64,000 bases of DNA from a virus (lineage: Duplodnaviria; Caudoviricetes). This document shows, piece by piece, positions 12,948-20,067 of this stretch. The stretch is taken from positions 32,001 to 96,000 of the IMG/VR virus record IMGVR_UViG_3300005330_000014; one strand, written 5' to 3'. Position 1 is the first letter of the stretch. The number at the start of each line of letters is the position of its first letter. The translations under genes and the position numbers were made by a program. The notes under the pieces were generated by a model. It searched no databases and had not been told where the DNA came from. It worked only from the letters and a program-made list of their open reading frames with translations.

Positions 12948-13012
12948 GTACAAAACAAAAGCCGCGCAACCTAGCTAGTTAGCAGTTATGCTGTAGCATA
13001 GGCGCGCGGCTC
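12948..13012 (-). terminator. Long-hairpin terminator followed by TGTAC
   Basis: GCCGCGC...GCGCGGC stem, TTTTGTTTTGTAC. Confidence 0.65.
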
Positions 13013-13024
13013 TTAGTTAGTTAA

Positions 13025-13393
13025 TTACTCTCCGCTGATTACAGCTTGGCAACCGTCAGCGAACGCTTGCGCATATCGCGTGTCATGTTTGCGGTTATGC
13101 TCAATATAACGCTTGGCTTTATTCACCATTGCGTTGCGTTCATCCGCTAGCCTTGCTATCAGTAGTAATTCATCCCTCGCCGCTAGCGAACTTTTTTCTC
13201 CGTATTCGACCGCATGTATCAGCACGACGCTTTCCCATGTTGGCGTACAATCAATACTCCCCACTGGTGTCTTATTCTCCGCTTGTTGCGCTCTAAACGC
13301 GTCTACTTGCTCGCCCTTGCCTTGCCAGTGTTTGCGTTGGCGTTCGTTTCCCTTGTTGGATTGTTTGATTAGGTCAGTCTGCTTTTGTTTCAT
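13025..13393 (-). CDS. Hypothetical early protein
   Basis: ORF with AACT-repeat leader. Confidence 0.7.
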   Translation of the reverse strand: MKQKQTDLIKQSNKGNERQRKHWQGKGEQVDAFRAQQAENKTPVGSIDCTPTWESVVLIHAVEYGEKSSLAARDELLLIARLADERNAMVNKAKRYIEHNRKHDTRYAQAFADGCQAVISGE

Positions 13394-13411
13394 AGGTAAT
13401 AGGTTAGTTAG

Positions 13412-13561
13412 TTAGTTGTTAAGGAGTTGAATGATTGAGTTGATAGGTTGCGCGTGGGAATAGATGGCAAGCTTAAGCTCGCGACCAATGCCAGCGATGA
13501 AGAAAGCCGCGCGACTAGGGCGGCGAATGATGCACACGAGATGGAGGGCGATGTTTCGCAT
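13412..13561 (-). CDS. Small hypothetical protein
   Basis: ATG directly after stop of 13563-13835 (MRNIALHL..., 49 aa). Confidence 0.45.
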   Translation of the reverse strand: MRNIALHLVCIIRRPSRAAFFIAGIGRELKLAIYSHAQPINSIIQLLNN

Positions 13562-13562
13562 A

Positions 13563-13835
13563 CTAGCCTTTCTTCGCTTGCTGTGCGCACCGATACGCTG
13601 GCGTATGGTGGGGCCAAGCTTCATGTCCGCTAAGGGTAAGGCGGAAATGAGACAACGCATATACAGCCATAGGGCCACAAGCTGACAGTCCGCCTTGCGC
13701 GTTTATCCATCCTTCTGCATAGCCTATATAATACGCCATTTCTACGGGGGACAATTCCCCGTTAGCGTTGTATTTAGGTTGCTCAATTATCTCTGTCAGC
13801 TTTGCTAGCAGTACTTGATACGGTGTTTTTGGCAT
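13563..13835 (-). CDS. Hypothetical early protein
   Basis: ORF with AACT-repeat leader. Confidence 0.6.
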   Translation of the reverse strand: MPKTPYQVLLAKLTEIIEQPKYNANGELSPVEMAYYIGYAEGWINAQGGLSACGPMAVYALSHFRLTLSGHEAWPHHTPAYRCAQQAKKG

Positions 13836-13919
13836 ATGATTGAATTAGTTAGTTAGTTGATTAGTGAGGCTAGGCAAACGGATGGAACGTCACGCTTTAG
13901 CGGCTTTAGCCATTATGGG

Positions 13920-14474
13920 TTACACACACTCTTCAGGGTCAATCTCTGTTAGTCCCTCAGTGTCCACGCTAGGCGCATCGCCCGCACTGCTAGCGCCATT
14001 TCCGCCCTCCCCTGCTAGCTTGTTGAGATTTTGACCGTTGAGCCAATAAACGTTATTCACGTCCTTGGTTAGCATGCCGCTATCGCGCAAAGCGAGTACC
14101 TTGCCTATCTGCTCCTCACGCGTGAGGCCGTTGATACCAAGCGCAATTTCCTTTGCCGGGGTGAACGTCCTAAACGTCCCATAACGCGCGTTAAAGGCTG
14201 CTTCGTTCGCTCCCCGCGTAGGCTGCATTACTGGCGATGATGCGCGCGCTACGCTAGCCATGTCGCTCACTTGTCGCACGCTAGCCGCAATGCGTTGCGG
14301 ATTCACTCCCGCTGCAACAAGCCCATCATATATCTCCAGAGCGTGTTTCACGTCACCTGCCACTAGCATAATTGCAAAGCTAATTGGCGCGTTAATTGGC
14401 GTTTCACGCGGCTCGATAGTTTCCGCTTGCGCGGCTTTTGCCGCTTTCTTCTTTTGAGTCGTTTTCTTTTTCAT
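13920..14474 (-). CDS. Hypothetical early protein (basic N-terminus, acidic C-terminus)
   Basis: 184-aa ORF. Confidence 0.7.
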   Translation of the reverse strand: MKKKTTQKKKAAKAAQAETIEPRETPINAPISFAIMLVAGDVKHALEIYDGLVAAGVNPQRIAASVRQVSDMASVARASSPVMQPTRGANEAAFNARYGTFRTFTPAKEIALGINGLTREEQIGKVLALRDSGMLTKDVNNVYWLNGQNLNKLAGEGGNGASSAGDAPSVDTEGLTEIDPEECV

Positions 14475-14483
14475 CGAAATTGA

Positions 14484-14711
14484 TTAGTTAAGGGTTTCCA
14501 TTTGATTTGCCCATTTCCAGAAAACACTTTGTTTCGCCTTGTCGTTTGTGGCGTCAATTTCCTTGTCGCGGGTTATGTAACCCTGCCAGTAAGAAATTGT
14601 TGAATGAATTAGACGCGAACGAGAAACGGGAGAATCTGCCAATTGCAAAATAGCCGTTTGTGTGTCGCGGAATTGATCATCTAGCTTTGCTTTGATTTCC
14701 AAGGTAGTCAT
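14484..14711 (-). CDS. Hypothetical early protein
   Basis: Packed ORF. Confidence 0.65.
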   Translation of the reverse strand: MTTLEIKAKLDDQFRDTQTAILQLADSPVSRSRLIHSTISYWQGYITRDKEIDATNDKAKQSVFWKWANQMETLN

Positions 14712-14794
14712 ATACTTATACTCAGTTAATTAGTTAGTTAGTTAAATTGACGGGAAAGGGGACGGATGGAACGTCTAACCTTGCCCTTTGTTAA

Positions 14795-15772
14795 TTACTT
14801 GCGCGCGGCTTTCGCGGCTTTTTGCTTGGTCGCAATCATTTCCATATAATCCGCCCCCCCTTTGGCAAGCTGCCATCCTCCGCGCACAGGTTCTACCATT
14901 CCTTCGCTCGCGAGCCAGTTAACGCGGTCAAGCGTGCTCTTTTTCTTTTCGTCGCGTACTTTGAAGCGGAGAACATCTGCCGTAACGTGTTTCTCTTTTA
15001 CGATAGTGTTGAGGATCGTAATGTCTTCCCTCCGCAATCCCTTGGGGAAAAATCCCTTTGACCTAAGCAATTCCGTTACGTCGTCGCCTTTCAGTTTGCG
15101 AATGTCTTTCGCCTTCGCGCGATTGACGATAGGTCCAACTACTTCCTCCAAATCCCCCGGGAATGGCTTAACGCGGTCAAGTAACGCGTTCATGCCATCC
15201 TCCGTAAGCGCAACATCCTCACGGGCCAGAAATAGCTCGGCAATTTTCTCCATCTCGTTGCGCTTGTAAGCGCCAGTGATGAAGGAGCGACAACGGCGTT
15301 GCATCGCCTTATCGAGTGGCATGTTGCTGGCGAAAATATGAATATGATTTGTTGGGTCGAAATGGAAACAGTTTCCTTGCTTCCAAATCGTATGAGCCTC
15401 CGTTACTTGCGTCGTCAGTGCTTTAATCAAATCCAGTCCCTGCTTTTGCGCGTGGAATTCATCCCACAGAATTACGTAGGGGATTGCGCTCACTTGTTGC
15501 GTGTCAGGGTCAAACGACGCGATTTTATTCGCCATTTGATACAACTCCTTCATGCCAGCGTTTGGGGGCACTTCGTGATAATTGAATCCGAAATTGACCA
15601 ATTGCTCGGCCAACGCACGGGCGAGATTGCTTTTCCCCGTTCCTGTGTAGCCTCCCAAAAAGATTGGACGCCATTTGTACACCTCATTTTTCTTTGCGCT
15701 ATTGGCATGCGCCAAAAGCATTTCATTCAATTCCCCGACAATTTCAGTCTGTCCGATATACTTAGTAATCAT
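14795..15772 (-). CDS. ruvB: RuvB-like AAA+ ATPase with C-terminal winged helix
   Basis: YIGQ start, GYTGTGKS Walker A, WDEFH Walker B, QRR arginine finger, GL...D..IL and C-terminal wHTH; RuvB-like length. Confidence 0.7.
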   Translation of the reverse strand: MITKYIGQTEIVGELNEMLLAHANSAKKNEVYKWRPIFLGGYTGTGKSNLARALAEQLVNFGFNYHEVPPNAGMKELYQMANKIASFDPDTQQVSAIPYVILWDEFHAQKQGLDLIKALTTQVTEAHTIWKQGNCFHFDPTNHIHIFASNMPLDKAMQRRCRSFITGAYKRNEMEKIAELFLAREDVALTEDGMNALLDRVKPFPGDLEEVVGPIVNRAKAKDIRKLKGDDVTELLRSKGFFPKGLRREDITILNTIVKEKHVTADVLRFKVRDEKKKSTLDRVNWLASEGMVEPVRGGWQLAKGGADYMEMIATKQKAAKAARK

Positions 15773-15829
15773 AATCAGTTTTCTAGTTAGTTAGTTAATT
15801 TGTTTCCTCTGCATTTGCTTATCAGCTTT

Positions 15830-16140
15830 CCCGCCTTGGAACGGTTTAGAGTCTAGCGGATATGCCAGATTGTCTAAGGTGCATTAAACCGGCAAATCGC
15901 TTGTCTTGAATCGGCATCGTAATGGATGCCTAAACGACTAAGGTTTGCCAACGATGCCAGCGTGACTGTGAGGCTAATACTCGCCAGTCCTAACGTGCCC
16001 ATGCTGTCCAATCGTATCTAGTCGGCAATTCCCGCGTTTCGCAACGCGTTCTCTGCTCTGCATTCTCTCTCTTTATCCGCGCCGAGCACTGAGTTTGTGT
16101 CCTCTCGGCATCCCCATTTCCACACTGCATAGAGAGAATA
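15830..16140 (-). ncRNA. Candidate structured RNA / long leader of RuvB operon
   Basis: No ORF of 60 aa or more; several nested stems and a GCGA tetraloop. Confidence 0.45.
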
Positions 16141-16576
16141 ACCCGTACCCATATAAGGAGCAACATTTAAATACTTAATTTCAGTCAATTTTTAAAATAA
16201 TTCCGCGCGGCAATGTGATGATTGGCATAAAACTTGTTTTCGATTGTTTTGTTTAATCGAAAGTTTGGCACGCTTCTTTTCTATAATCTTTAGAAAATCT
16301 TTAAATAAGTCAAATAAGTCAATTTAATTAATTAGTTATTTACTTTAGCCAATCTAATCAACCCTGCCAAATAATCAATATCCCTAGATAATCAATACGT
16401 CTTAACTATTTAGTTTACTTAAGTTAATAGTTAACCTATCTGAAGTATCCGCCGCGTAGCCGCGCGGCCAAATTGCCGGGTGCCCCTTATTACGTTCCTC
16501 ATACGTTCAAACGGAGGGTCTGTTTTCGCCGCTAGGCATTATTAAGAGTTTAATTGTTTAAAACTGAGGGCCAGCC

Positions 16577-16618
16577 GTACAGCAAGAATGCCGCCCATAT
16601 TAAAGAGCGGCAATCTTG
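16577..16618 (-). terminator. Hairpin followed by TTCTTGCTGTAC
   Basis: TGCCGC...GCGGCA stem after gene 16645. Confidence 0.55.
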
Positions 16619-16644
16619 AAAAGTGAGATTTATTATTTAGTTAC

Positions 16645-17121
16645 TTAATACTCTTCGGGTTCGATGGGTTCATCCATGTCGCTTTCATCGTAACCACTCA
16701 AAACGCAAGGGCGATAACGGCTCATTTTCTCGGCGTGGCAAGACTTACAGGTGCGGCAAAGATAAATTCCGCGCGCATCGCTGTTTGAATGGGAGGGCAA
16801 ACCACTGCCACAATTGCAAAGGCGGGTGACAACGGAGAAAGCCATTACCTCGATACTTTCCCACTCTTGCGCGATTGCCTTTTCATAATTTGGCCGCGCG
16901 CATTCATTCAAGCTTTCCACGTCCACCTTGCCCATCGAATCGCAGGAGAAACTATACCCGCCGTTCTTGGTAGTGAAGTGCAACGAGAAAGTTGTCTCGA
17001 TGATTTCGTGATCATCACGTTCAATATGTTTAGTTAAACCGGCAGCCACTTCATGAGTGTCAAACCAGCGGGAGAAGGAGATGGATGGATATTTCATATA
17101 TTCCTTTTTTAATCCACTCAA
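16645..17121 (-). CDS. Hypothetical protein with C-terminal Zn-binding motif
   Basis: CNCGSG...DARGIYLCRTCKSC; start may be MKYPS (17097). Confidence 0.65.
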   Translation of the reverse strand: MSGLKKEYMKYPSISFSRWFDTHEVAAGLTKHIERDDHEIIETTFSLHFTTKNGGYSFSCDSMGKVDVESLNECARPNYEKAIAQEWESIEVMAFSVVTRLCNCGSGLPSHSNSDARGIYLCRTCKSCHAEKMSRYRPCVLSGYDESDMDEPIEPEEY

Positions 17122-17191
17122 TCAATTCGTGCAACAAAAATTTTTAAATTCTTTCTTAATTACTTATTTACTCTGGAAAATAGTCTAATCA

Positions 17192-17235
17192 GTACAAAAG
17201 GAAACCCCCACTGCCGCGCGGACAATGAGGGTTTC
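17192..17235 (-). terminator. Terminator followed by TGTAC
   Basis: GAAACCC/GGGTTTC stem, CTTTTGTAC. Confidence 0.65.
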
Positions 17236-17470
17236 AAGGTGCTTTGCCTTGCGGCCTATCTTTGAGTTTTAAGCCATCGGCATTTCAGGCGGGCTGTCCG
17301 TTAGGACTTTTATTTGTTTACTTAGTTATTTGTCAGAGACTATTTCCGCCTTCACTGCCCATTACATATCTGCTAGCTAGACAGACTCGGGGACTCGACC
17401 GACGGTTTATTTCAATTTGAGTTTTTCACTTTTCAACATCGCTCTTATTATTGAGCAGGTTATTTCTAAC
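17195..17470 (-). ncRNA. Candidate phage sRNA A (~275 nt)
   Basis: Own promoter and terminator; longest ORF seen 10 codons; multiple stems. Confidence 0.6.
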
Positions 17471-17476
17471 GAGTCC

Positions 17477-17505
17477 ATTTTACCATACCAATCCAAACGC
17501 GTCAA
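17477..17505 (-). promoter_or_regulatory. Sigma-70-type promoter
   Basis: TTGACG-N17-TAAAAT with extended TG. Confidence 0.85.
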
Positions 17506-17665
17506 CAAAAATTTTCAACTATTTTCAAAAATCTTTTTCCATCTTAATTATCCGCCCGAATTGATAGTTTGTTTTAATCTGTTTTAATCCGATTGTTTAG
17601 TTAATTAGTAATTAGGTTATTTGTTTTCTTCATTTAATTATTTAGTTGTTTAGTTATTTGAATCA

Positions 17666-17707
17666 GTACAAGAAAAAACCCGCCACCCTCTTTCGAGAGT
17701 GACGGGC
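17666..17707 (-). terminator. Terminator followed by TGTAC
   Basis: CCCGTCACTCTC-GAAA-GAGGGTGGCGGG, TTTTTTCTTGTAC. Confidence 0.8.
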
Positions 17708-17721
17708 TTCCGTAGGCGATA

Positions 17722-18132
17722 TTACTTCGCGGGCGTCAAAACAGCCTTTGCCGTCTTCACGTTTTTCTTTGCGACGGGCTTCGCGGCCTTTGCCTTCGAC
17801 TCCGCCGCCTTCTTTGGCTTGTTCGTGCTGCCGACGGGACGACCCGACTTCGCGGCTGCCATCTTGATGCCGCTCTCGATAGGGTACGGGATTTTCGCGT
17901 TGCCCTTGGAAGGCTCCTCGGTGAGAAACACGCGAACGAATTCCTTGCCACCCTTGTGCGTTTCATGCCGCGCGGACACGGTTGCATCCATTTGCTTCGC
18001 TCCCGTGTGAGCCATCGCGTAAATATTCGCGATTTTCTGACCGTTCACGGGAACGACGAACGATTGACCCTTCCGCATAAGGCGGAGCGTGGCGGAGATG
18101 CTGAACTTGTTTTTATTGGAGTTGTTTTTCAT
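17722..18132 (-). CDS. Basic DNA-binding protein with AT-hook-like motif and histone-H1-like tail
   Basis: SGRPVGS, Lys/Ala/Pro-rich tail. Confidence 0.6.
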   Translation of the reverse strand: MKNNSNKNKFSISATLRLMRKGQSFVVPVNGQKIANIYAMAHTGAKQMDATVSARHETHKGGKEFVRVFLTEEPSKGNAKIPYPIESGIKMAAAKSGRPVGSTNKPKKAAESKAKAAKPVAKKNVKTAKAVLTPAK

Positions 18133-18216
18133 ACTGTTATTTAGTTTTTTAGTTTAGTTGTTTGTTTCGAGTTTTTCTAGTCTTTCAAGCTAAGGGATTG
18201 AACCTTTTCTGTCACT

Positions 18217-18244
18217 ACTTTAGCACATATTGAGATTCTGTCAA
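18217..18244 (-). promoter_or_regulatory. Sigma-70-type promoter
   Basis: TTGACA-N16-TAAAGT with extended TG. Confidence 0.8.
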
Positions 18245-18297
18245 CAATTATTTTAGGAAATTTTTTGGTTATGTAATTTTCTCTGTATTTGAATTGT

Positions 18298-18522
18298 TTA
18301 AATTGTTTGTTTACTTACTTTCCAAACGGGTGCCCGCAAACAATTCTGTTTCCGAAATTTCCGCAATTCTTTCCGCTTGGCTTTCAGTCCCGCCGCAATC
18401 TTTTCATTCAAAATTCCCGTGCATGTTCCCGCTTTCAAATCTTTATAATGTTTTTGTGCAATATCCGCCGCCACAGTTCCCATGATCAAATCGTTTACCG
18501 TTGGAAGATTCTTTTTGTTCAT
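18298..18522 (-). CDS. Hypothetical protein
   Basis: Co-oriented ORF. Confidence 0.6.
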   Translation of the reverse strand: MNKKNLPTVNDLIMGTVAADIAQKHYKDLKAGTCTGILNEKIAAGLKAKRKELRKFRKQNCLRAPVWKVSKQTI

Positions 18523-18558
18523 ATTTTTAGTTTTTTTAGTGTTTGGTTTAGTTAATTA

Positions 18559-18810
18559 TTAGTTTTTAATTAAGCTGTGCCACGTTCCCTTGCCACGTCC
18601 CCGGATTTTTACCTCCAGTATTTCGGCGGGCTCAAAATTCCTCTCAATCCTCCGCATGATTTCATAAAGGTGAAAAGAATGATCCGCGCGAATCCAGAGA
18701 ATGTGCCCGCGTCCCTCGCCATCAGTAACGCGGAAAGAATAATCCCGGCATTTGTTGGCGGAACTACCGAAAACGAAAGGCAAACCTTGGGGAATAAAAG
18801 TAGTGATCAT
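18559..18810 (-). CDS. Hypothetical protein
   Basis: Co-oriented ORF. Confidence 0.6.
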   Translation of the reverse strand: MITTFIPQGLPFVFGSSANKCRDYSFRVTDGEGRGHILWIRADHSFHLYEIMRRIERNFEPAEILEVKIRGRGKGTWHSLIKN

Positions 18811-18862
18811 ATTATTTATGTATTTATGTTGATTGTTTATTTAGTTTAAGTTAGTTAATTGT

Positions 18863-19069
18863 TTAGTCTTGAAAATCGCCGTAGGGGAAACCCATATCCA
18901 TTTCTTCATCGCTGCCACGTTCCAAACATCCAGAGCAGATTGAGAAACGCGAGCCTCGGGGCACTTTCGCCCCACAAGTGCATTTCATATTGAGTTGTTC
19001 TCCAGTTTCCGCATCGAAATCGGGGCAGCAACCGGATTCATGACCGCAGCAAGGGAAATCTTCGCACAT
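18863..19069 (-). CDS. Small Cys-rich phage protein (CEDFPCCGH type)
   Basis: MCEDFPCCGH..GCC...CTCG...CSGC. Confidence 0.7.
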   Translation of the reverse strand: MCEDFPCCGHESGCCPDFDAETGEQLNMKCTCGAKVPRGSRFSICSGCLERGSDEEMDMGFPYGDFQD

Positions 19070-19112
19070 AATTTTGTTTATTTTTAAGGTTAAAGGTTAA
19101 TCTGACACAGCC

Positions 19113-19141
19113 AATTTATCAGCTATTCAATCATCCGTCAA
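19113..19141 (-). promoter_or_regulatory. Sigma-70-type promoter
   Basis: TTGACG-N17-TAAATT with extended TG. Confidence 0.75.
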
Positions 19142-19174
19142 TAGAAAAATTTAGAATTTTTTTAGCTTAGATTT

Positions 19175-19222
19175 GTACAGCAAAAAAGCCGCGCGCCTTA
19201 ACCCTGACGGGTGGACACGCGG
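19175..19222 (-). terminator. Terminator followed by TGTAC
   Basis: GCCGCG...CGCGGC, TTTTTTGCTGTAC. Confidence 0.75.
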
Positions 19223-19432
19223 CCTTTGTATTTATTTATTTAATTAAATTTTACATTCCTTGTTTCCGCGCCCATTTCTCGAATGCCTTATCGATACTCA
19301 ACTCCGCCACCTTTTCTTTTCGGTCCATCCGTTCATTTTGATTCGGGCGCGTATATTCGAGTTTTGTATTTTTGCGGGAGGTATGTTTTTTCATGAGTTA
19401 TTTTAGTTAGTAGTTATTTGTTTGTGGGAGAG

Positions 19433-19516
19433 TGGTGGCCCGCCTCGGACTCGAACCGAGAAACCTTTCGGTCAGGGATTTTAAGTCCCCCGTGTTTGCC
19501 ATTTCACCAGCGGGCC
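19433..19516 (-). tRNA. trnL: tRNA-Leu (TAA), CCA encoded
   Basis: GGCCCGC/GCGGGCC, GGGGA-CTTAAAA-TCCCT, long V-arm, A73-CCA. Confidence 0.95.
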
Positions 19517-19791
19517 AAAGTGTTTATTTAGTTAATTAAATATATGATTCTGCCCGCTGCTCCCACGCCTGCTGCTCCCACATATCATTTGCGGCTGCCA
19601 TCGTAATTGCAAGGGCTCGATCAGCTTTGCTCATGCGTCGGATTTGTTCATGCGTAAATCCCGCGCGGCTCAATTGTTTAAGTATGTAGATATTCATTAG
19701 TTTTTAGTTATAATTGATTAAACCGTTTTGAAAATCACAACGATTCCGATTGCAAGGAAGATTACAAATGGGTCCATGAGTTATTTATTAG

Positions 19792-20067
19792 TTAGTCAAT
19801 GAAAACGTGTGCATAATCCCCGTTAGGTAGTGATCCCGTAACAAAGTTCTTATTCCAAGAATTGCCCGCTTGTGGATTGCCAAATTTCTCAACATCTTCC
19901 GCCGCAAATTTTTCGCATAACTTTTGTGCCCCGTAAATATGTGCGGCATCGTGCCCGTCTACCTCCACCGGAATTGAAAGGGTAATTGAGCCGCGCGTAC
20001 AAAACGCTTTAATACGTGTTGGCTTTGTGTTTGTCCAAGGCAGGATTTTTGTTTGGATAGCTTGCAT
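19792..20067 (-). CDS. Conserved-type phage hypothetical protein
   Basis: MQAIQTK...TNTKPTRIKA N-terminus. Confidence 0.7.
   Translation of the reverse strand: MQAIQTKILPWTNTKPTRIKAFCTRGSITLSIPVEVDGHDAAHIYGAQKLCEKFAAEDVEKFGNPQAGNSWNKNFVTGSLPNGDYAHVFID

Follow-up and report, generated by a model that had tools for sequence, protein, structure and literature searches.

A candidate long 5′ leader of a RuvB-like early operon in the largest gene-free gap of a soil phage genome of 208 kb

Introduction

What does a phage keep in the longest gene-free stretch of its genome, and is the GC-balanced part of that stretch a structured RNA? The question arises for a soil phage known from a 208,233-bp IMG/VR record with an estimated completeness of 95%, of which bases 32001–96000 form the 64,000-nt window studied here (positions below are counted within the window, except those on related contigs). 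The whole genome has a GC content of 34.8%; its GC-richest island, at about 49% in 1-kb bins, lies at 13000–20000, where GC-rich minus-strand genes are interleaved with AT-rich spacers. Within this island, 15791–16644 is the longest stretch without any ORF of at least 60 aa on either strand in the 208 kb scanned, and it includes the block considered here, 15830–16140 (minus strand), which is bounded by an AT-rich spacer (16140–16440) on one side and the start of an AAA+ gene (14795–15772) on the other.

A preliminary description had presented this block as an ORF-poor, GC-balanced, structured RNA of about 310 nt upstream of a RuvB-like gene, serving either as a large cis-regulatory leader or as an independent non-coding RNA (ncRNA). 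Its compositional part is borne out: no ORF reaches 60 aa, and the GC content is about 47–52%, against 34.8% for the genome. At roughly 50%, the block is at the level of the neighbouring genes, not at that of the AT-rich spacers.

Anatomy of the gap and the gene that follows it

In the order in which the minus strand reads, the gap and its surroundings comprise the following parts (z values refer to folding energy against shuffled sequence):

16577–16612, minus strand: intrinsic terminator of the preceding 158-aa gene unit, a hairpin followed by TTCTTGCTGTAC (z −3.7 to −4.3)
16448–16494, minus strand: conserved element ahead of the promoter, in which a CGTAATAA box precedes about 40 GC-rich nt ending in GCGGCGGA (GGCGGA)
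16371–16434, minus strand: AT-rich repeats of the TAACTATT and ATTGATTAT type, flanking the −35 box
16342–16370, minus strand: sigma70-like early promoter, TTGGCA-17 nt-TAAAGT, from a consensus scan; transcription would start near 16335
16150–16335, minus strand: AT-rich part of the putative 5′ leader (about 30% GC), with an 8-bp hairpin at about 16240–16265 and a CCGCGCGG site and then a U-rich run at 16216–16190
15956–16149, minus strand: GC-balanced part of the putative leader, with the nested stems and the GNRA hairpin (100-nt windows at z +0.65 to −1.97, not above chance)
15851–15950, minus strand: three-hairpin domain, an irregular hairpin of about 60 nt and then two 6-bp hairpins; the only above-chance stability in the block
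15826–15846, minus strand: small hairpin CCGUU-CCAA-GGCGG, about 60–72 nt upstream of the ATG (z +0.4)
15773–15805, minus strand: translation-start region of the RuvB-like gene, with the phage-typical TAACTAACTAA motif and no Shine–Dalgarno sequence, predicted to be unpaired
14795–15772, minus strand: gene for a RuvB-fold AAA+ ATPase of 325 aa, the first after the leader, with its ATG at 15772

The label ‘RuvB-like’ is upheld at the level of the fold. An AlphaFold model of the 325-aa protein (pLDDT 91) has only RuvB among its top Foldseek matches, which extend over the full length (TM 0.77, 16% identity); Pfam and PHROG return nothing beyond generic AAA or clamp-loader matches. Across the related contigs the gene has a GC content of 48–53% and a GC3 of 49–64%, and since it is GC-rich in all of them, the high GC of the early genes is maintained in the lineage and is no mark of recent transfer.

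A separate observation concerns the other end of this gene, where T-arm-like hairpins – a stem of 4–10 bp closing a UUC(A/C)AUC loop – lie 15–20 nt past the stop codon. The scan for them required a stem of at least 4 bp closing a 7-nt UUCNANN loop, and returned the following:

14762–14775 and 13878–13891, minus strand: GACG-UUCCAUC-CGUC in this phage
L004, 5989: one hairpin in this relative
L005, 5165 and 5745: two hairpins
L009, 1314, 2399 and 2948: three hairpins

The RuvB-like gene is thus followed by such a hairpin both here and in L004, L005 and L009, and the last two relatives have further copies past the next gene; the stem of one L005 hairpin reaches 10 bp and resembles a tRNA minihelix. 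Together they make up an intercistronic RNA signal that is conserved and may be a processing site. A variant at 15831–15844 was rejected as a member of this class, as it folds as CCGUU-CCAA-GGCGG.

Folding of the block

All the stems named in the preliminary description are present where it had placed them, as a direct check confirmed, and a listing of inverted repeats also recovered the perfect 9-nt repeat 16062–16070/16131–16139. What does not hold is the claim built on them. The minimum free energy (MFE) of the whole block of about 310 nt is no better than that of dinucleotide shuffles (z −0.69 on the minus strand, −1.45 on the plus strand); the preliminary description had itself said that folding at shuffle level would count against a structured RNA, and this is the level at which the block as a whole folds. 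Its parts behave similarly, with z −1.4 for the nested stems (16055–16145, dinucleotide shuffles), −2.0 for the GNRA hairpin (16033–16048) and +0.8 for the sub-domain 15955–16030, and the ATTCTCTCT/AGAGAGAAT stem within 15956–16149 is lost when the full leader is folded to its MFE. For the most part, random sequence of such composition would yield a multi-stem picture like the one obtained from the sequence alone.

A scan of 13.1–18.2 kb in sliding 100-nt windows gave strong signals at the terminators, 16526–16675 and 17626–17775 (z −3.7 to −5.9), and a single one in the block, at 15851–15975 (z −4.4 and −2.4). Narrowed to 15851–15950, the latter has a z of −4.24 on the minus strand (0/1000 shuffles) and −2.46 on the plus strand, a stability at about the level of this region’s terminators, the significance of which is modest because the window was picked post hoc from some 10–14 overlapping windows across the block. 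The core hairpin, 15885–15955, reaches z −3.5 (3/1000 shuffles) and is about equally stable on both strands. In the main hairpin, 15888–15951, an 8-bp lower stem is followed by internal loops and a 6-bp GGCAUC/GAUGCC top; it is the hairpin that the preliminary description had drawn as GGCAAA/TTTGCC around GGCATC/GATGCC, and the two small hairpins lie on its 3′ side. The pairs of 15851–15950, a domain 79–178 nt upstream of the start codon, persist in the full-leader fold, with unpaired probabilities near zero. A large structured RNA is therefore not supported, and only a sub-domain of about 100 nt is thermodynamically unusual.

No intrinsic terminator or attenuator was found on the minus strand of 15773–16340, the main hairpin being followed only by UUUAAU.

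Promoter and putative leader

The promoter at 16370–16342 belongs to a family of the form TTGnCn-17-TAAAnT, with at least nine sites on the same strand of the early region (54406, 45454, 33533, 28090, 27784, 19141, 18244, 17505 and 16370, all minus), in many of which the spacer contains GATTG and an A/T-rich tract lies upstream. This family suggests that the early region may be transcribed by the host RNA polymerase. With this promoter upstream of the RuvB-like gene and no terminator between them, the gene would have a 5′ leader of about 563 nt; the other promoters of the family lie some 10–200 nt from the next start codon, and the leader is thus an outlier that needs explaining. A same-strand promoter, the lack of an intervening terminator and the lack of an ORF – the sequence signals expected of a 5′ leader – are all present here. 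Of the two-sided proposal of a large cis-regulatory leader or ncRNA, the leader is the part that fits the anatomy, and the large structured RNA, with its shuffle-level fold and no Rfam match, the part that is not supported.

The AT-rich part of the leader holds a 15-codon ORF beginning with ATG (MPIITLPRGIILKID, 16185–16232, minus strand), which crosses the CCGCGCGG site and the U-rich run; a leader-peptide or attenuator arrangement is one reading of it, chance another. A weak hairpin with a U-run at 16216–16190 might bring about a partial transcription stop.

At the other end, the TAACTAACTAA motif of the start region recurs upstream of many starts in the phage. Genome-wide, the genes have no Shine–Dalgarno sequence; ahead of their starts lie A/T-rich tracts, often TAACTAACTAA, and this places stops in all three frames. 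Starts of this kind would be in keeping with a host, such as a member of the Bacteroidota, in which initiation is not dependent on the Shine–Dalgarno sequence. Masking of translation by the leader was considered and rejected, the start region being predicted to remain open in the full-leader fold.

Untranslated RNA ahead of a phage early gene has well-known precedents: the leader of the lambda N gene, of about 220 nt, carries nutL and an RNase III-sensitive hairpin, and the early mRNA of T7 carries RNase III processing hairpins. The present leader resembles both in that an irregular, internally looped hairpin lies at some distance ahead of an unmasked start, but at about 560 nt it is longer than that of lambda N, has no sequence relation to either and contains no identified boxA- or boxB-like motif. 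Within the same phage, the neighbouring unit one gene upstream, at 17196–17505, has a promoter of the same family on the same strand and is likewise ORF-free and without an Rfam family; it ends, however, in a strong terminator (17235–17201), whereas the block has none and runs into the gene. BLAST of 15773–16644 found no similarity to this unit beyond short AT-rich motifs and, against the whole genome, no paralogue of the block, with only start-region and promoter motifs recurring. The 5′ untranslated regions (UTRs) of phage phiKZ, which likewise separate the first gene of an operon from its promoter, are mostly 31–40 nt long by dRNA-seq, and its host, Pseudomonas aeruginosa PAO1, has none above 300 nt (PMC8244752); the leader proposed here would be more than 10 times longer than the former and, at about 563 nt, would exceed the maximum of the latter.

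Comparison with related contigs

The AAA+ protein has 11 homologues, all metagenomic, with 44–54% identity, and 11 related contigs (labelled L003 and so on) were compared, the nearest relatives having 44–55% identity in this protein. Ahead of their copy of the gene, L003, L005 (with its near-copy L006), L009 and L011 have an ORF-free gap of 570–880 nt. Other relatives encode, directly upstream of the RuvB-like gene, a small conserved protein of 71–79 aa with the C-terminus SFLAIAQ/LARIRAGQSFLAIAQ, which is absent here:

L004, 4682–4921: small protein of the SFLAIAQ family
L010, 2086–2301: small protein of the SFLAIAQ family
L016, 433–660: small protein of the SFLAIAQ family

L012 has a different ORF, of 61 aa, at this place, and the 61-aa ORF called in L017 is doubtful as a gene because it sits in AT-rich repeat DNA.

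From the promoter onwards, the leader, with the block in it, has no similarity to any relative by BLASTN, by Smith–Waterman alignment with shuffles or by translated search. Close relatives at the DNA level are likewise lacking: the phage collection gave no match, and an exact 31-mer is absent from IMG/VR. Protein searches of IMG/VR returned one distant match with the single protein and none with a profile, and a metagenome protein scan two loci, one of them already known. In the one other contig with available DNA that encodes the identical AAA+ protein, L015, the DNA is identical too, except for four bases (13720–13723) at the contig end.

Nor is shared structure detectable. RNAalifold predicted 0 pairs in the ATG-proximal 75 nt of nine loci, which are poorly alignable, and a comparable GC-balanced block in L009 folds no better than shuffles (z −0.69). 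A stable hairpin within 200 nt of the ATG does occur in L009 (z −3.4) and L011 (z −4.9); none was found in the 400 nt nearest the ATG in L003, L005, L007 or L012. A motif CAAGCG(R)(R)AA, loosely like the 15826–15846 hairpin, lies at an equal distance in several relatives.

The GC content of the leader varies from 28% to 48% across relatives, with L003, L005 and L011 at 28–30% and this phage at about 48%. As the relatives’ genes are GC-rich but their leaders vary in this way, the high GC of the present leader is not simply inherited from the island; its gene-like level hints at constraint or at recent coding ancestry, and is the chief point in favour of a functional or recently-coding origin.

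Conserved elements around the promoter

By sequence comparison, it is the promoter-region elements, not the block, that make up the conserved part of the gap. The element at 16448–16494 aligns to 151–197 of L017 (z 3.3), and the same layout is found in L003, L004, L005, L007, L009, L010 and L011; a CGTAATA(T/A) box with about 40 GC-rich nt ending in GGCGGA is kept ahead of the RuvB-like operon in all relatives examined, and the TAACTATT-type repeats after it belong to the conserved region too. The region resembles a second promoter or an operator. The TTGGCA box of the 16370 promoter is also common to L009 and L010 in the alignment.

An observation of wider extent is the palindrome CCGCGCGG, of which the genome has 57 copies against 0.71 expected under a first-order Markov model, an 80-fold excess; the next most enriched 8-mer palindrome reaches only 6-fold. 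Copies lie in genes and in spacers (for example, at 16203–16210, 16460–16467 and 17214–17221), often as GCCGCGCGGC; some make GCGC-loop mini-hairpins before U-runs, and the motif also occurs in related contigs.

Coding potential and decayed genes

The block is real non-coding DNA. A codon log-odds model, trained on the genes of the island and of the relatives and evaluated by leaving out one locus at a time, scores real genes at −0.05 to +0.34 per codon and all six of the six block frames negatively, the best at −0.20 to −0.26. Reassignment of stop codons was ruled out: no single reassignment opens a frame in the block, and none of the phage’s 7 tRNAs is a suppressor. The idea of a pseudogene was also rejected, since the number of stops is at chance level, Pfam and PHROG give no match and HMMER finds only the sequence itself.

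A broader version of the latter idea is that the block is the remnant of one or two small accessory genes, passively transcribed and without a present function. The slot does hold small ORFs in relatives (the 71–79-aa SFLAIAQ family in L004, L010 and L016, and the 61-aa ORF of L012), the GC content matches genes and not AT-rich spacers, and one block frame, that with the least negative codon score, contains only three stops, all of them TAG. A frame with three stops or fewer, however, arises in 52% of shuffles (P = 0.52); tblastn detects no similarity between the block and the relatives’ small upstream proteins; and the read-through of the TAG frame matches neither Pfam nor PHROG and, in a HMMER search of 1.84 billion representative proteins, nothing except its own 56-aa ORF. 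Decay would also leave the locally stable hairpin domain unexplained. On balance, we regard a decayed gene as unlikely.

Known RNAs and a possible independent transcript

That no known RNA is recognisable in the block was confirmed with the 4227 models of Rfam, among them riboswitches, ribozymes, ROOL and GOLLD, group I and II introns and sRNAs, for which cmscan gave no match to it even at E ≤ 10. Over the whole window, gathering thresholds were passed only by four tRNAs, all elsewhere; between 15600 and 16800, relaxing to E ≤ 10 added one chance match, to HULC (26.6 bits against a threshold of 45); and the relatives’ loci also gave no match.

These results bear on the proposal that the 16370 promoter yields an RNA of 300–560 nt that is released from the mRNA and acts alone. 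Intergenic DNA that is rich in GC and devoid of ORFs is, in an AT-rich genome, a classic sign of an ncRNA, and here it lies inside the genome’s largest ORF-free gap and has a GC-balanced counterpart in L009. In being long, GC-enriched, ORF-free and set in a phage, the block is like ROOL, GOLLD and riboswitch or ribozyme families; unlike them, it has no Rfam match, no excess of global folding energy and no detectable conservation in the contigs compared, which are relatives at 44–55% identity. Neither a terminator nor a T-arm-like processing hairpin follows the block, the global folds of both this block and that of L009 stand at z −0.69, and no similarity to relatives is detectable in sequence or structure. 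An RNA of this kind is, in our estimate, quite improbable.

Small proteins and DNA-level elements

Very improbable is a small protein gene, for which the candidates are ORFs of 58 aa (15990–16166), 56 aa (16018–16188; 44 aa from an internal ATG) and 45 aa (15874–16011). The 58-aa ORF has its ATG in an A/T-rich context like the phage’s other starts and would encode a hydrophobic N-terminus, and the 56-aa ORF was predicted by a gene caller (the HMMER self match); against this, codon scores are −0.48 for the 58-aa and −0.33 for the 44-aa ORF (about −0.05 to +0.34 for real genes), Pfam has no match, the 56-aa frame has no homologue among 1.84 billion proteins, no relative has a matching ORF upstream of the gene, and none of the candidates is preceded by TAACTAACTAA.

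We consider least probable of all that the gap is a replication origin or protein-binding DNA with incidental palindromes as its stems: no non-coding region of the genome is larger, and this one adjoins an AAA+ gene, includes an AT-rich tract with short direct and inverted repeats (TAACTATT, ATTGATTAT, TTGACTTAT) of a type conserved among relatives, and has a main hairpin about equally stable on either strand, but those repeats lie at 16300–16440, outside the block, the fold of the AAA+ protein is that of RuvB and not of the DnaA or Orc initiators, and cumulative GC skew has no extremum here.

The proposed leader and its hairpin domain

We favour, with about even confidence, the reading of the block as the promoter-distal, GC-balanced part of an unusually long (about 563 nt) untranslated leader of the RuvB-like early operon. 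Minus-strand transcription would begin near 16335, directed by the sigma70-like promoter at 16370–16342, and would continue through the leader into the operon; this start, the co-transcription with the gene and the ends of the RNA are what we infer from the sequence signals. Most of the leader would be under no detectable constraint on structure or sequence and would evolve freely.

The domain at 15851–15950, if active, would most likely serve as a processing or stability site – an irregular hairpin of the RNase III type – or as a site for protein binding, and would less likely act as a riboswitch-like translation switch, as it is predicted to leave the start region unmasked. If an RNase III site is defined by cleavage within an irregular duplex of at least about 20 bp, the predicted shape of 15888–15951, with its 8-bp lower stem, internal loops and 6-bp upper stem, is suggestive of one. 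That the hairpin has a function at all is a tentative proposal, which we think somewhat doubtful.

A bolder extension of the leader reading, to which we give a small chance, is that the leader or its GC-balanced half of 300 nt functions as an RNA specific to this lineage, in a jumbo phage that is rich in RNAs; it could be a stable RNA derived from the 5′ UTR, say, or a platform for regulation to which a phage protein binds. The slot would then be swappable, with relatives placing different RNAs or small proteins there, at the head of a conserved early operon.

Implications

The object thus appears to be of an already-known kind, a 5′ leader, notable for its length and for its position in the largest gene-free gap of the genome. 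No new RNA class is added, and the useful outcome is a negative one on the multi-stem picture: attention should narrow to the hairpin domain of about 100 nt and to the conserved promoter-region elements further upstream. If the leader reading holds, this is an ordinary object of a length extraordinary for a phage, and the gene-free upstream region, which recurs in several relatives even as its sequence is not kept, may be a place in which to seek the regulation of early genes in this uncultivated phage group.
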